Made by a program: the position numbers and the translations under genes. Of a stretch of 7,757 bases of DNA, positions 1,121 through 7,757 are shown piece after piece. The notes under the pieces were generated by a model, which worked only from the letters and a program-made list of their open reading frames with translations, was not told where the DNA came from and did not search any database. The stretch lies in the IMG/VR virus record IMGVR_UViG_2537562190_000025. One strand, written 5' to 3'. The DNA is from a virus. Lineage: Duplodnaviria > Heunggongvirae > Uroviricota > Caudoviricetes. How positions within the stretch are numbered: the first letter of the stretch is position 1; every line of letters starts with the position of its first letter.

Positions 1121-2122
1121 TTACCCTCTATTGTCAAAAGGGTTCAATTCAACAGCAGCCTCTAAATGACCTGGAGCAAAATGCGCATAACGCATAGTCA
1201 TTTTTATATCGCTATGCCCCAGTATTTTTTGCAACACAAGAATATTTCCGCCCCGCATCATAAAATGACTGGCAAACGTGTGACGTAGCACATGAGTTAA
1301 TTGCCCATCAGGAAGCTCGATCTTCGCTCTCTTAATTGCAGCGTCAAAAGCCTCATAACATGGTGAAAATAGCGCTCCTCGTTTTTTGGGAAGCATAGCC
1401 TGCAATTGAGGTGAAATCGGTACAGTGCGGTTCTTCTTTCCTTTAGTTTTAACAAATGTGATTCGACCGGGCAGTACTTGAGATTGCTTTAATCCTTCTG
1501 CTTCACTCCACCGAGCACCAGTCGCAAGCCCAATACGGACAACAACCCCCAAATCTTTATTCCGTGACTCATCACACGCAATCAGAAGGCGTTCAATCTC
1601 ATCTACATACAGAAACGCCAGTTCCTTTTCTTCCTCACGAAACTTGCGAATACCAGTCAGGGGGTTTTCACCAGACCACTCCCCAAGGCGCTTCAGTTCG
1701 GCAAAAACAGCATGTAGATATGACTGCTCGCGATTAACGGTTGCTTCACTAAGTTTTTTCTTCCCCTTGGGATTCCATTCTCCTGATAGCCTTCTTTCCC
1801 GATAAGTGGCAAACATATTTTTGTCAAACTGAGAAGCAAATGGATCTCCCAGCCTGGAACAAATCGCCTCAAGTTTGACTTTGCGCTCTGCACCAGAGGA
1901 CAAGGTTTTACCGTACATCTCAAACCAACGAGCAATCAACTCAGAAAGACGAGGACCAGAACCATCTTGAAACTCGTCTCCAACTCTACTATTCATTAAA
2001 CGGCGCTCATAAGAGAGCGCCTCACTTTTTGTCGCAAACTGTTTACGAATGCGTTTTCCCGATGCCCCGTAGGGATAACATTCGCAAAGCCATTTACCTG
2101 ATGGAATCTTACGAACCGACAT
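1121..2122 (-). CDS. int: Tyrosine recombinase / phage integrase, P2-family
   Basis: 333-aa ORF. Conserved tyrosine-recombinase boxes: GLATGARWSEA (Arg), THVLRHTFASHF (His-x-x-Arg), GHSDIKMTMRYAHFAP (catalytic Tyr). Strong resemblance to recalled P2 Int (ITFVKTKGKKNRTVPIS, LQKILGH, YAHFAP). Lies directly next to the tRNA fragment. Confidence 0.95.
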   Translation of the reverse strand: MSVRKIPSGKWLCECYPYGASGKRIRKQFATKSEALSYERRLMNSRVGDEFQDGSGPRLSELIARWFEMYGKTLSSGAERKVKLEAICSRLGDPFASQFDKNMFATYRERRLSGEWNPKGKKKLSEATVNREQSYLHAVFAELKRLGEWSGENPLTGIRKFREEEKELAFLYVDEIERLLIACDESRNKDLGVVVRIGLATGARWSEAEGLKQSQVLPGRITFVKTKGKKNRTVPISPQLQAMLPKKRGALFSPCYEAFDAAIKRAKIELPDGQLTHVLRHTFASHFMMRGGNILVLQKILGHSDIKMTMRYAHFAPGHLEAAVELNPFDNRG

Positions 2123-5833: not shown

Positions 5834-6096
5834 CCATTCTGGACTACATCGCTACTCATCCGGGTTGTAGCGGCGGAGAGATCGCCGCAGCACTGAATAC
5901 TCCAACCACAGCCATTAATGCTGAGTTACGCCAACTTTGGCGCGGCGGCTTAGTCATCAGAACAAACCGCAGCACAGGTGGTCGCGCTCGCAAAACTGGA
6001 GGCCAGGCTTCTTACCACGTAAACCCGATGCCGTTCGGGTGTAGCAATCCACTTACTCACATGTTTAACCAGCTACTAAAGGAAGCCAGAACATGA
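5830..6096 (+). CDS. Small winged-helix/HTH-type DNA-binding protein (putative transcriptional regulator)
   Basis: 88 aa. Segment ILDYIATHPGCSGGEIAAALNTPTTAINAELRQLWRGGLVIR has a winged-helix pattern. AGGAG SD upstream. Translationally coupled to flanking genes. Confidence 0.6.
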   Translation: MTILDYIATHPGCSGGEIAAALNTPTTAINAELRQLWRGGLVIRTNRSTGGRARKTGGQASYHVNPMPFGCSNPLTHMFNQLLKEART

Positions 6097-6392
6097 GCAC
6101 CATCAACCACCAGAAGCTACGCGAACTGGCATTTGCCCTGCAACGAATGGCAACGCCTCAAAAATTACTGGCATTTCGCGCAATGCTCTCGCCGTCTGCT
6201 GTGCTGGCACTGCTGGATGAGCTGGAGCACGCCAGAACCACGGCTCCTGCCATTCGCCTGACACTCCATCATGAAATCGCTGATTTCTGCGCGACGTTGG
6301 AGGCACCAGGCGAACCGGAAACGCCGGAAGCAATACAGCAAGAGCTGCTGCAACGCATTGACAAGGTTTTTGATTTTTTTCTGAACCAGTAA
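6093..6392 (+). CDS. Hypothetical phage protein (N-terminus reminiscent of Ead/Ea22-like prophage proteins; weak call)
   Basis: 99 aa. SD AAGGAAG upstream. Start overlaps the previous stop. N-terminus MSTINHQKLRELAFAL resembles the recalled start of Ead/Ea22-like proteins. Confidence 0.55.
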   Translation: MSTINHQKLRELAFALQRMATPQKLLAFRAMLSPSAVLALLDELEHARTTAPAIRLTLHHEIADFCATLEAPGEPETPEAIQQELLQRIDKVFDFFLNQ

Positions 6393-6714
6393 GAAACCAG
6401 AACATGCACACACAAAAAAACCGCTTGCCATGCCGCAATCAGTCAGGTTACATTTCCGCTGCACCTCATAAAACGGGTGCCGGGATTCTCAACCCGATAC
6501 AGAGCAAAGCGCATAACCGCGCCAGCGGTTTTTTTGTGCGTACTGTATTGCCACGTCTTTTTCGCGTCAGAATTATGGCGGGGCGTACGGGGCCGACTTC
6601 GGTCGGGCCGGATTCTTTGCTCTCCGGTGTTGAGAACCCTGTACGTCTCGCCACCCCGAGATTCTCAACTCTGGATGGTGAGCTATTTCTATCACCGAGC
6701 AAAGAGGCCACACC
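6393..6714 (+). other. Structured GC-rich non-coding island inside the rightward operon (candidate ncRNA / regulatory leader)
   Basis: No convincing coding frame. Contains the terminator-like hairpin (6515-6535), a stable UUCG-type tetraloop hairpin GGCCGAC-TTCG-GTCGGGCC (6591-6609), and three copies of GATTCTCAAC / GTTGAGAA (6485-6494 direct, 6629-6636 inverted, 6661-6670 direct). Confidence 0.35.
6515..6535 (+). terminator. Candidate intrinsic terminator (short GC stem plus T7 run)
   Basis: AACCGC-GCCA-GCGGTT followed by TTTTT (T-run 6529-6535). Stem is only ~6 bp, so weak to moderate. Confidence 0.4.
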
Positions 6715-6927
6715 ATGGCAAACCGCAAACAACAGCGCGCATACGCTGCGCGTCGTCACATCCAGACTGAAATCAACCGTAGACTTTTCCGCGCATCACG
6801 CGTCGCGCAAATCATGCACATCAATATGCTGCATGAGCGCAGCCACGCGCTATCGAACATCTATTCCGCCTCTGTTTTCAGCTATCTGGCGGATGATCTG
6901 CGCGAGCTGCAACAACTCTTCCAGTAG
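6715..6927 (+). CDS. Hypothetical small basic protein
   Basis: 70 aa. SD AAGAGG 8 nt upstream. Balanced helical-looking composition, unlike the overlapping 205-aa ORF in another frame. Confidence 0.55.
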   Translation: MANRKQQRAYAARRHIQTEINRRLFRASRVAQIMHINMLHERSHALSNIYSASVFSYLADDLRELQQLFQ

Positions 6928-7017
6928 CAAAACAAACTCCATTAATTCCTGTTCCGGGCCTTTCCTGCACCTTGCGGCGGGAGGCCTTCGCACATCTGTA
7001 GTAAAGAGAATTGCAGC

Positions 7018-7407
7018 ATGATTGACGCTCATGACTTCACAAGATGGGTGCGCACACAGGACACCCGTCTGGCTCCCGTTCTTCAGGGATTATTTGATCT
7101 CTACATCCGTGGTCGTGACAACAGAGCACGCACCACAAAACCAGAGAATGCAGACACCCTTTATTTCACAGTAGACGACTGCTACCGCGTGGACTTCACA
7201 CCACACGGGCTGGCGTTGCACTGCCTGACACCACACGGAGAATCACTGCTGGCGTATTACGACTCCCCGGCCTCCGTATTTGCGGCAATGCTGGCGCATC
7301 GCACTGCTGGCGGGTGTGCCTCGCTGAGTGAATACACCGCTGAATTTAACCGCCTTTCTGCCCTCTTCTCGCAGGAGTGGCAGCGCGTGACAGGATACCA
7401 GCCATGA
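7018..7407 (+). CDS. Hypothetical protein
   Basis: 129 aa. AAGAGA SD-like sequence upstream. Stop overlaps the next start (ATGA at 7404-7407). Confidence 0.55.
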   Translation: MIDAHDFTRWVRTQDTRLAPVLQGLFDLYIRGRDNRARTTKPENADTLYFTVDDCYRVDFTPHGLALHCLTPHGESLLAYYDSPASVFAAMLAHRTAGGCASLSEYTAEFNRLSALFSQEWQRVTGYQP

Positions 7408-7757
7408 GTGAGTTTGCATGGAGCTGGAATGAACCACGGCCAGCCATTGATCCGGCCAGATTTACGGAGCACAGGCAGGAAACTGAAACCGACCTGCAAC
7501 GCGCCATCCGTTACTACCTTGAGGCGGACAAAAAGGCCCGGGAAGAACAGGAAGCGAAGGAGGAAGCCTTTTTCGCACAATCCGCCATGGGTAAAAAACT
7601 CATGGCATCCCTTGAGGAAGCCGGACAGCGTGAAAAGCTGGCACAGAGCATCATCAGTAAGCGCCGGGCAACAGAACAAGACCCGGTGGCCCGTGCCTTT
7701 GCCACACTGAAGGCGCTTCCCGTTTATCTGCGAGAACCTCTGAGCCGCCACCTCTCT
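7404..7757 (+). CDS. Hypothetical protein, 3-prime partial (runs off the window); not in the supplied ORF track
   Basis: Hand translation from ATG 7404 gives MSEFAWSWNEPRPAIDPARFTEHRQETETDLQRAIRYYLEADKKAREEQEAKEEAFFAQSAMGKKLMASLEEAGQREKLAQSIISK... with no stop to the window end. Start is translationally coupled to the upstream gene. Confidence 0.5.
   Translation, partial: MSEFAWSWNEPRPAIDPARFTEHRQETETDLQRAIRYYLEADKKAREEQEAKEEAFFAQSAMGKKLMASLEEAGQREKLAQSIISKRRATEQDPVARAFATLKALPVYLREPLSRHLS

Follow-up and report, generated by a model that had tools for sequence, protein, structure and literature searches.

A P4-type IsrK–C4 antisense-RNA immunity cassette is very probably encoded ahead of the replication gene of a P2-like prophage

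Predicted RNA genes in an apparent gap

What occupies the interval 6393–6714 of this prophage, which public annotation variously leaves empty or labels as an ‘ash family protein’, a ‘transcriptional regulator’ or a hypothetical protein on the minus strand? An earlier note on the window (the whole stretch of 7,757 nucleotides analysed here) had described it as a GC-rich, structured island interrupting an operon. Judged from the sequence, the interval very probably is an IsrK/SeqA–C4/CI antisense-RNA immunity cassette of the P4 type, carried by a P2-like prophage of the P88/Xuanwuvirus type. This kind of cassette is already known from the immI region of P1/P7, from satellite P4 and from Salmonella Gifsy-1, and the current understanding of it stands; in the limited literature that we searched, we found no account of such a cassette in P2-like phages. 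The features listed in the earlier note are real and are jointly the parts of this cassette, which comprises, with its neighbouring genes, the following elements:

6404–7021, plus strand: eta-like ORF of 205 aa (‘frame 0’), from the ORF listing and its translation
6425–6454, plus strand: sigma-70 promoter-like site (TTGCCA, 18-nt spacer, TACATT), from a consensus scan
6461–6535, plus strand: IsrK/SeqA-like leader RNA (Rfam RF01394, isrK)
6486–6493, plus strand: putative a1 target UUCUCAAC, within hairpin 2 (loop and 3' side), complementary to a'
6501–6509, plus strand: putative b1 target AGAGCAAAG, in the single-stranded stretch of IsrK, complementary to b'
6515–6535, plus strand: IsrK intrinsic terminator, a 6-bp GC-rich stem followed by U7, equivalent to the 3' hairpin of the isrK model
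6571–6658, plus strand: C4/CI antisense RNA (Rfam RF01695, C4)
6614–6623, plus strand: putative b' antisense element, in a 12-nt hairpin loop, reverse complement of b1 and b2
6629–6636, plus strand: putative a' antisense element GUUGAGAA, in a single-stranded junction, reverse complement of a1 and a2
6662–6669, plus strand: putative a2 target UUCUCAAC, directly 3' of C4
6697–6705, plus strand (entry 6697–6707): putative b2 target GAGCAAAGA, overlapping the Shine-Dalgarno sequence AAGAGG (6702–6707) of the epsilon-like gene
6715–6927, plus strand: epsilon-like ‘derepression protein’ gene, 70 aa (Pfam PF25738, Derepression)
7018–7407, plus strand: orf129 (phrog_3237, function unknown), its start overlapping the eta-like stop (ATGA)
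7404–7757, plus strand: 5' part of the P2-type replication endonuclease gene A, from the annotation of a 100%-identical E. coli locus

The interval was indeed structured, folding better than shuffled sequences (z = −4.5, reached by 0 of 200), and its GC content exceeded that of the window, if only mildly (53.7% versus 47.4%). Both RNA models matched over their full length and above their curated thresholds: isrK with 62.8 bits (gathering score 50, E = 5.6e-12, model positions 1–77 of 77) and C4 with 78.5 bits (gathering score 45, E = 1.3e-14, model positions 1–87 of 87). The earlier note had offered a small RNA or a leader controlling downstream genes among its options, which pointed in the right direction, and these matches identify the system that it had not recognised; its remark that the locus is not a retron is accepted.

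The IsrK-like RNA consists of hairpin 1 (6461–6480), hairpin 2 (6481–6496), a single-stranded stretch and the terminator. The latter was also found independently of the isrK model, as a hairpin at 6515–6530 with seven T at 6529–6535, in agreement with the terminator-like hairpin and T run reported earlier. A weak CRISPR-repeat match (RF01343, 21.7 bits, sub-threshold, E = 0.54) is this same hairpin read on the opposite strand and was set aside as chance. RF03163 (c4-a1b1) gave no match in the window at E ≤ 1 even though isrK matched, and the a1 and b1 elements are present despite this; elsewhere, RF03163 scored 44.1 bits in P4, below its gathering score of 46.7, and 48.1 bits in Gifsy-1.

Upstream of IsrK, the site at 6425–6454 is a putative promoter in the position of P51b of P1. 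It aligned with P1c4/P51b, a promoter annotated in P1, and with the equivalent regions of P4 and Gifsy-1, and both of its hexamers were invariant in all 16 unique homologues of the same geometry. The predicted transcription start (around 6461) lies 3' of the ATG of the long ORF at 6404. A second promoter-like site (6548–6576) was left out of the system: its −10 element is the conserved 5' end of C4 (AAUUAU), and its −35 element varied among homologues (TTGCCA 50, TCGCCA 22, TGTCAT 21).

C4 folds into a long stem (6576–6592/6637–6653) that encloses a UUCG hairpin (6593–6606) and the b' hairpin (6607–6628), with a conserved AUG at 6575–6577. The stem of the C(UUCG)G hairpin (6593–6597/6602–6606) falls within the tetraloop hairpin that had been placed at 6591–6609. 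When 11 sequences, among them those of P1, P4, Gifsy-1 and relatives from metagenomes, were folded jointly with RNAalifold, 11 of the 27 consensus pairs carried compensatory, two-sided changes. The C4 RNA of the window would, like others of its family, be excised by RNase P from a longer transcript, yielding a stable RNA of about 77 nt.

Putative antisense and target elements that vary together

The three copies of a 10-bp motif seen earlier are better described as two direct copies and one imperfect inverted copy than as three identical ones, since GATTCTCAAC occurs exactly at 6484–6493 and 6660–6669 and, inverted and with one mismatch, at 6629–6638 (three matches versus 0.52 expected; three were reached in 4 of 200 shuffles). 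These copies correspond to the target sites a1 and a2 and to the antisense element a', and the position of a2 relative to C4 matches that annotated for a2 of P1. A second triplet, GAGCAAAG, lies at 6502–6509 (plus), 6615–6622 (minus) and 6697–6704 (plus), corresponding to b1, b' and b2 (three matches versus 0.34 expected). This b triplet had escaped the earlier note, as had the fact that b2 overlaps the next gene's ribosome-binding site; the Shine-Dalgarno sequence in question ends 7 nt before the epsilon-like ATG at 6715.

For three of the four element pairs, the predicted duplex was better than those with shuffled targets (0–1 of 500 shuffles reached the observed value), with −12.2 kcal/mol for b'/b1 (shuffles −5.7 ± 1.7) and −14.3 kcal/mol for b'/b2 (shuffles −6.2 ± 1.8). 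The a'/a2 duplex was weaker, with 26 of 500 shuffles reaching the observed value. Duplexes between C4 loops and targets came to −33 to −37 kcal/mol for cognate and mostly −17 to −30 kcal/mol for non-cognate combinations; this separation is only partly clean, one non-cognate pair scoring like the cognate ones, and we therefore make no prediction of heteroimmunity between particular phages.

Homologues were retrieved with an invariant 21-nt core, and 123 loci shared the C4 core. Among these we counted 28 combinations of a'/b' loops, whose targets nearly always changed in step at fixed offsets, although the loci are closely related and the covarying types are thus not independent events. About 20 different b' cores were present among the relatives, each nearly always accompanied by matching b1 and b2 elements, and about 10 different a' cores with matching targets; for a few loop types, exact Watson-Crick matching did not reveal a clear b1 or b2. 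Complementarity averaged 7.8 nt (b) and 7.1 nt (a) within a type, compared with 4.4 nt across types. Indeed, the window and phages P88 and P884B11 differ almost solely in a1/b1, b'/a' and a2/b2, with complementarity kept throughout. Because the targets covary with a' and b' at fixed offsets, this constitutes strong covariation in favour of RNA–RNA pairing. As read from these alignments, the repeats are antisense and target elements of RNA that covary in triplets across homologues.

Overlapping genes and competing explanations

The epsilon-like gene is the predicted regulated target of the RNAs. Its product matched PF25738 with 31.6 bits (cut-off 27; P4 epsilon itself scores 170 bits) and aligned with P4 epsilon by BLASTP at 30% identity (E = 3e-9). 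No Icd/Kil-like leader ORF was found between C4 and this gene, NF033153 matching the P4 ORF and nothing in the window, and profile searches found no Icd-like or Ant-like protein in the window either; the translational target therefore differs from those in P1 and P4. An NCBIfam search returned nothing for the 205-aa ORF, the epsilon-like protein or orf129. The stop of orf129 overlaps the ATG of gene A at 7404, and a homologue of A lay downstream of C4, with a median distance of 800 nt, in 77 of the 123 related loci.

Might this prophage hold a genuine module that is no longer active or is falling into decay? A premature TAG shortens the product of the epsilon-like gene (70 aa versus 76 aa in most relatives), and an IS3-family element abuts the prophage end. 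Against this, the truncation costs the last 6 residues only, no damage is seen in any RNA element, in the hexamers of the promoter-like site or in any a/b pairing, and sequences at least 99% identical are present in 148 E. coli records, with a further 351 at 95–99%. Decay is accordingly improbable, even though it is the best surviving of the alternatives. Overall, the sequence had matches in 1849 of 5426 complete genomes.

It is less probable still that the interval acts solely as a cis-acting terminator/antiterminator leader without a trans-acting antisense RNA. The intrinsic terminator at 6515–6535 would suit such a leader, and b'/a' of the unprocessed RNA are predicted to pair in cis with a2/b2. 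The full C4 architecture is conserved, however, including the long acceptor-like stem, and the homologous C4/CI RNAs of P1 and P4 act in trans after excision by processing of a longer transcript (PMC4825925, PMC3632133). Moreover, the existence of many heterospecific a/b types is easiest to understand with a specificity exerted in trans, as in immunity.

Contrary to the earlier claim that no convincing ORF is present, an ATG-initiated ORF of 205 aa (6404–7021) spans the promoter-like site, both RNA genes, a2/b2 and, out of frame, the whole epsilon-like gene. It starts 11 nt past the upstream stop, without overlap, and its own stop overlaps the ATG of orf129 at 7018 (ATGA); among homologues, ATGA overlaps at the ends of this ORF occur in several unrelated contexts. 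The frame was open in 77 of 82 unique homologues, which as close relatives do not count as independent events, whereas the other two frames have stops in the variable elements. It was also open across all 43 of 43 epsilon-like variants (synonymous shuffles gave 0.17–0.65 per sequence).

We refer to this ORF as eta-like, as it appears to correspond to P4 eta; its Pfam Phage_ASH match lies under the cut-off (19.3 bits, cut-off 26), and P4 eta matches the same family at 82.4 bits. The Phage_ASH and PHROG ‘transcriptional regulator’ matches cover only aa 4–114, which is the RNA-coding part, and the shared RNA-coding DNA alone may account for the similarity. BLASTP of the 205-aa ORF against the P4 ‘cI’ ORF gave no convincing alignment, though the two contain homologous RNA genes in the same frame.

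Is the interval, then, a plain protein gene for an Ash/Eta-like ‘transcriptional regulator’, with the RNA-model matches and repeats as by-products? The ORF exists, its frame is conserved, it has the Pfam and PHROG matches just described, and its relatives are annotated as a ‘transcriptional regulator’ or ‘ash family protein’ (it is an annotated gene in P884B11, and the latter label is used in some E. coli). We nevertheless consider this highly unlikely. Apart from the restriction of the matches to the RNA-coding part, the variation sits in six short blocks that are mutual reverse complements, which protein constraints do not predict, and compensatory stem changes freely alter the peptide (GPTSVGP, GQPPGWP, GEPKGSP). 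The C-terminal half of the ORF is an out-of-frame reading of a gene with real homology. Furthermore, the sequence record of P4 continues to list the ‘cI’ ORF as a repressor protein, yet the P4 repressor is the CI RNA (PMC10111431, PMC3632133).

The earlier note had named an intact gene across the interval in homologous elements as a sign of a decayed pseudogene. Such an intact ORF is present, in homologues and in the window itself, and this leaves the RNA function unrefuted, because P4 reportedly has its RNA genes within eta, an ORF that is translated (PMC10111431, in its summary of Forti et al. 1999). With the ORF intact and the RNA elements conserved, we ruled out a decayed pseudogene.

That the repeats are instead protein-binding DNA sites, such as an operator for a small DNA-binding protein of the operon, or an origin-like element, as had also been proposed, is suggested by the direct and inverted copies of the 10-bp motif and by the DNA-binding proteins (including a MarR-like one) encoded upstream, but can be dismissed with near certainty: there are two different motifs, each in a direct, an inverted and a direct copy, with the inverted copies at single-stranded positions of a conserved RNA fold, b2 over a Shine-Dalgarno sequence, a layout identical to the experimentally defined a1/b1/a2/b2 sites of P1, and no iteron-like array.

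Known relatives, proposed mechanism and meaning

In a four-way alignment of the window with P1, P4 and Gifsy-1, the promoter, hairpins, terminator, C4, a2, b2/Shine-Dalgarno sequence and start codon all lined up. The P4 immunity region reads PLE – seqA – cI/CI RNA – seqC – kil/eta – epsilon – orf151 – alpha. As in the window, the Rfam families isrK/seqA and C4/CI follow each other in this order and precede a gene of the epsilon family and one for replication. In both, the RNA genes and promoter region lie inside a long ORF, of the Phage_ASH/eta type in P4 and putatively so in the window, which reads through the conserved AUG of C4 in the same frame and has stop/start overlaps at its ends (apart from the 11-nt gap at the start in the window). 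The two differ in that the window belongs to a P2-like helper-type phage and P4 is a satellite; in the Icd/Kil-like domain (nested kil), which P4 has and the window lacks; and in the downstream replication gene, which is the P2 gene A in the window and the alpha primase gene in P4. Between C4 and epsilon there are 57 nt in the window, where b2 falls on the epsilon-like gene's own Shine-Dalgarno sequence, and 245 nt in P4. The eta-like ORF covers the whole epsilon-like gene, whereas P4 eta ends at the epsilon start, and the a' element of P4 has the opposite polarity.

For the P1/P7 immI region (P51a/b – a1 b1 – c4 – a2 b2 – icd – ant1/2), the likeness lies in a C4-family RNA with a1/b1 upstream and a2/b2 downstream at near-identical spacings, the promoter position (P51b), b2 over the ribosome-binding site of the first downstream ORF (icd in P1), an anti-repressor as cargo and several immunity specificities (compare P1 with P7). 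The P1 record annotates a1, b1, c4, a2, b2 and the icd ribosome-binding site in the geometry of the window. In P1/P7, a C1 operator is located at the promoter. The window, in contrast, lacks icd and carries as cargo a member of the unrelated small epsilon family rather than Ant; its cassette is spanned by the eta-like ORF, P1 having no co-directional upstream gene; and its leader, besides matching isrK, ends in a strong intrinsic terminator.

Gifsy-1 (isrK – orf45 (STnc1160) – anrP) likewise has isrK and C4 (STnc1160) homologues in tandem, an ORF through the C4 AUG that ends in an ATGA overlap with the downstream gene, and an anti-repressor as cargo, which in Gifsy-1 induces the prophage. Gifsy-1 is, however, lambdoid; its anti-repressor is an ORF6N-type protein; and orf45 has just 45 codons, with no long eta-like frame through isrK. 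The published Gifsy-1 mechanism stresses activation in trans by IsrK, not repression by C4. IsrK supplied in trans activates translation there, and in P4 seqA is required for immunity. The translated orf45 of Gifsy-1 starts at the conserved 5' AUG of C4 and has an ATGA overlap with anrP (PMC4825925).

From the P1/P7, P4 and Gifsy-1 precedents we infer the following lysogenic lock and lytic bypass. In a lysogen, the internal promoter would fire and most transcripts would end at the IsrK terminator, while read-through transcripts would yield stable C4 RNA by processing, which in P1 and P4 is the work of RNase P. C4 would use a' and b' to pair with a2 and b2, either in its own read-through transcript or in RNA of a superinfecting phage of the same type, thereby blocking translation of the epsilon-like gene; the untranslated RNA would then be terminated (Rho-dependent in P1 and P4), leaving orf129 and A unexpressed. 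The outcome would be sequence-specific immunity and a lock on lysogeny, with IsrK competing for or cooperating with C4 via a1/b1. Silencing of the replication gene by CI-type premature termination is suggested by the gene order C4, epsilon-like gene, orf129, A. Transcripts from an upstream early promoter, on the other hand, would carry the ATG at 6404, such that ribosomes translating the eta-like ORF could prevent terminator formation, C4 folding and Rho loading. Lytic transcription would thereby reach orf129 and A, in line with P4, where translation of eta reportedly overrides RNA-dependent termination. The mechanistic precedents are described in PMC4825925 and PMC3632133 and, for P4, in PMC10111431 as a summary of Forti 1999 and Sabbattini 1995.

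A wider reading is conceivable, though we regard it as rather doubtful: P2-like phages of the helper type, those of the P88/Xuanwuvirus group, might possess their own complete P4-style RNA immunity/induction switch directly before gene A, composed of the eta-like ORF, IsrK, C4 and an epsilon-like anti-repressor, with at least about 20 b and about 10 a specificities reassorting as modules, the 205-codon ORF kept only as a ‘ribosome track’ that overrides the RNA lock, and cross-talk between helper and satellite RNAs. If true, the modular reassortment of a/b specificities would suggest diversifying selection for heteroimmunity, and the ‘ribosome track’ would overprint an entire anti-repressor gene. 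As P4-like satellites carry the same cassette with opposite polarity of the a element, helper and satellite RNAs might also pair with or titrate each other, adding an RNA-level layer to helper–satellite conflict.

At the strength of the main reading, the unannotated gap just ahead of the replication gene, in a prophage type that is very common in E. coli, turns into a regulatory module with defined parts, and Phage_ASH together with several PHROG ‘regulator’ families would largely represent DNA encoding the IsrK and C4 RNAs. The eta–CI–epsilon module of P4 would have a close counterpart in helper-type phages of the P2 family, which bears on the origin of satellite parts and on possible cross-talk. 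The naturally covarying a/b specificities would offer ready material for studies of RNA-based heteroimmunity.

IsrK- and C4-type RNAs in the early operon

The interval 6393-6714 lies within the rightward early operon of the prophage, with a small Ead/Ea22-like gene (6093-6392) on its left and a gene for a 70-aa protein (6715-6927) on its right. The earlier note had described it as structured and had proposed Rfam and covariation searches. Its predicted folding is indeed better than that of shuffled sequences (z = -4.5), and the Rfam search returned two full-length matches above curated thresholds, isrK and C4; the c4-a1b1 model had no match in the window.

Features of the prophage and its cassette
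1-888: IS3-family transposase fragment (orfB), abutting the integrase end of the prophage
1-72: ALIL frameshift pseudoknot (Rfam, 60.4 bits)
1121-2122, minus strand: phage integrase
3171-3575, minus strand: HTH repressor-like gene
6425-6454: promoter-like site, hexamers invariant in homologues; positional equivalent of P1 P51b
6461-6535: isrK (RF01394), 62.8 bits, gathering score 50
6486-6493: a1, putative target, loop of IsrK hairpin 2
6501-6509: b1, putative target
6548-6576: second sigma-70-like match (TTGCCA, 17 nt, AATTAT), between IsrK terminator and C4
6571-6658: C4 antisense RNA (RF01695), 78.5 bits, gathering score 45
6614-6623: b', putative antisense element, 12-nt loop of second C4 hairpin
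6629-6636: a', putative antisense element, single-stranded in C4
6662-6669: a2, putative target
6697-6705: b2, putative target, overlapping the Shine-Dalgarno AAGAGG (6702-6707), which the ATG at 6715 follows after 7 nt
7018-7407, plus strand: orf129, separated from the epsilon-like gene (6715-6927) by a conserved 90-nt spacer
7404: start of P2-type replication endonuclease gene A

In P4, the two RNAs are named seqA and CI RNA (PMC3632133, PMC4825925). Their order is as in the window both in this satellite (Rfam scan: isrK 8615-8692, C4 8420-8507, upstream of epsilon) and in Salmonella Gifsy-1 (isrK 34240-34316; C4, or STnc1160, 34131-34214), and the archetype layout is annotated in the P1 GenBank record (promoters P51a and P51b, a1, b1, c4 RNA, a2, b2, icd and ant). 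When the window, P4, Gifsy-1 and P1 were aligned, the promoter hexamers, the two hairpins of the leader, the terminator and the conserved C4 start GAAUUAUGG all coincided, as did a2, b2 together with its Shine-Dalgarno, and the start codon that follows. Covariation gave a matching picture, with 11 of 27 pairs of the C4 secondary structure compensatory in a set including P1, P4 and Gifsy-1, and with target blocks changing in step. The terminator hairpin with seven T noticed earlier is present at 6515-6535, as is the UUCG-type tetraloop hairpin, C(UUCG)G, at 6593-6606; the supposed GC-richness is only mild (53.7% versus 47.4% for the window).

Systems of this kind are well known, and existing Rfam models recognise both RNAs; for P2-like phages, the literature searched contained no account of the cassette. 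P1 and P4 carry an Icd/Kil-like leader ORF, whereas none was found in the window, so that the anti-repressor gene itself would be the translational target. The window further differs from P4 in that its host is a helper-type phage, the a-element polarity is opposite and the putative eta-like ORF overprints the entire epsilon-like gene, and from Gifsy-1 in that its frame is long, passing through IsrK.

Complementary elements and their variation

The earlier note had reported three copies of a 10-bp motif. Two copies of GATTCTCAAC are present (6484-6493 and 6660-6669), but the inverted copy at 6629-6638 is imperfect. The motif breaks down into a1, a' and a2, and a second triplet, made up of b1, b' and b2, had been overlooked. 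Judged from sequence, the repeats are antisense and target elements, for which we consider the comparative evidence decisive. The cassettes of the window, P88 and the related phage P884B11 are near-identical, with differences almost only in the six a/b blocks, and these blocks stay complementary to each other inside each of the three. We then compared 123 loci, namely 120 IMG/VR loci fetched by the invariant C4 core plus these three phages. They comprise 28 b'/a' combinations, in which some 20 b cores and 10 a cores reassort as modules, and in nearly every type the reverse complements lie at constant offsets up- and downstream. Mean complementarity to a locus's own flanks was 7.8 nt (b) and 7.1 nt (a), as compared with 4.4 nt to flanks of other types. 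The duplex energies of three of the four element/target pairs beat shuffled controls; the a'/a2 duplex is weaker, its observed value being reached by 26 of 500 shuffles.

In P4-like satellites (L016, L075, L116 and P4 itself, L123), a' is pyrimidine-rich (UUUCCAC or UUCUCAC) and the targets are GUGGAAA or GUGAGAA, while in P2-like phages (the window, P88 as L001, and others) a' reads GUGGAAA or GUUGAGAA, with UUUCCAC or UUCUCAAC as targets. Given this reversal, the satellite CI RNA resembles the helper target site over about 7 nt, which may have arisen by chance, the sequence space being small, or may hint at RNA cross-talk between helper and satellite.

An open frame across the RNA genes

Contrary to the earlier view that the interval holds no convincing ORF, it is crossed by a 205-codon ATG ORF (6404-7021). 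Its ATG precedes the -35 hexamer by 21 nt, and the frame runs through IsrK, the terminator, C4, a2/b2, the whole epsilon-like gene (in another frame) and the spacer, to an ATGA overlap with orf129. We first suspected spurious translation of RNA genes. Indeed, the ORF's matches (PHROG, and Pfam Phage_ASH at 19.3 bits, below cut-off) are restricted to the RNA-coding part, and where the stems carry compensatory changes, its amino-acid sequence is not maintained. This suspicion is countered by the conserved openness of the frame, which is stop-free over 6461-6714 in 77 of 82 unique homologues. Within a same-geometry set (n=32) the variable elements never bring a stop into this frame, as they do into the other two, and it is open over all 43 distinct epsilon-like coding sequences, while synonymous shuffles leave it open in 17-65% per sequence. 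ATGA overlaps with neighbouring genes also occur at the start or end of the frame in unrelated contexts.

Two precedents explain such a frame. P4 eta (199 aa, Phage_ASH 82.4 bits) is the same frame, via the same conserved AUG at the C4 5' end. According to a summary of Forti et al. 1999 (PMC10111431), seqA, CI and the constitutive promoter are all contained in eta, which is coupled to the gene upstream, is translatable solely from upstream transcripts and, when translated, blocks CI-dependent termination. In Gifsy-1, the ORF from the same C4 AUG is exactly the 45-aa orf45, whose translation and coupling to the anti-repressor anrP were shown experimentally (PMC4825925). From the conserved openness and these precedents we infer, at about an even chance, that 6404-7021 is an eta-like ORF.

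In some relatives (IMG/VR loci L014 and L004, from about -480 to +680 relative to the C4 core), this frame continues without interruption into a downstream gene, assigned to the Rha family by PGAP in comparable E. coli loci. These fusion ORFs have about 290-390 codons, with the N-terminal 100-160 or so residues from IsrK–C4 DNA and an internal start directly after b2. Such fusions are probably why PHROG 'transcriptional regulator' families of about 300 aa match the window ORF.

Putatively controlled genes, proposed mechanism and distribution

The epsilon-like gene, whose ribosome-binding site lies under b2, matches Pfam PF25738 (Derepression) and is 30% identical to P4 epsilon (E = 3e-9), which inactivates the P2 repressor and thereby derepresses P2 (PMC8628076). 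Its stop TAG (6925-6927) is CAG in most relatives, so that the product has 70 aa where 76 are usual (…LFQ*QNKLH*), and the window may carry a slightly truncated allele. Orf129 is joined to gene A by an ATGA overlap. In the spacer (6928-7021), a strong hairpin is predicted at about 6950-6992 and a second one encloses the orf129 Shine-Dalgarno and ATG (total -28 kcal/mol); these might serve in processing or termination, or might act as a gate on orf129 translation, making it depend on ribosomes from the eta-like frame.

Our analysis covers the sequence, structure, complementarity and covariation of the cassette, from which we infer all functional steps. The internal promoter-like site would give transcripts starting near 6461, without the start codon of the 205-codon ORF, most of which would stop at the IsrK terminator, and C4 would be made by processing of read-through RNA. 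The 6548-6576 match could be C4's own promoter; its -10 coincides with the conserved 5' end of C4, its -35 differs among homologues, and the match is probably fortuitous. Pairing of processed C4 with a2 and b2 would leave the epsilon-like gene untranslated and, by polarity, prevent expression of orf129 and A, resulting in sequence-specific immunity and a lysogeny lock, in cis and in trans. IsrK would bear decoy target copies; it may either titrate C4, like its Gifsy-1 counterpart, or aid termination, as P4 seqA does. Transcripts from the upstream early promoter would include the ATG at 6404, and ribosomes on the eta-like frame would prevent terminator and C4 formation, carrying lytic transcription through to A.

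The nearest phages are P88-like P2-family members (Xuanwuvirus; about 89% identity over 6300-6800), and cassette-related sequence occurs in 1849 of 5426 complete E. coli genomes. Among the 123 loci, the downstream cargo is an epsilon-like gene plus P2-type A in 77, so that one group of P2-like phages carries the cassette stably; the cargo is P4-like (kil plus alpha) in 5 and other, including Rha-type genes, in about 29. Classical P2 is not known to be inducible by mitomycin C. P88, a carrier of the cassette, was recovered after induction with mitomycin C (PMC5285337). Next to the integrase gene, a genome with 100% cassette identity over 6440-6730 has yecA and tyrP rather than IS3.

Annotation of the interval is inconsistent: an E. 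coli genome with 100% identity has no feature there, elsewhere it is called 'transcriptional regulator', 'ash family protein' or a minus-strand hypothetical, and the P4 GenBank record still carries a 'cI gene product' protein over CI RNA. In P4 (L123), Phage_ASH (PF10554) matches eta, the ORF across seqA–CI–seqC DNA (8168-8767, minus strand), whereas epsilon (7888-8175, minus strand) is PF25738 and has no Phage_ASH match. In a survey of P4-like satellites that equates Ash with epsilon, PF10554 served as the marker for 'epsilon' (PMC8628076), and this marker probably tracked the RNA immunity region. The points of interest are the putative eta-like overprinting frame and the large repertoire of reassorting specificities, as well as the occurrence of one cassette common to P2-like phages and their P4-like satellites.
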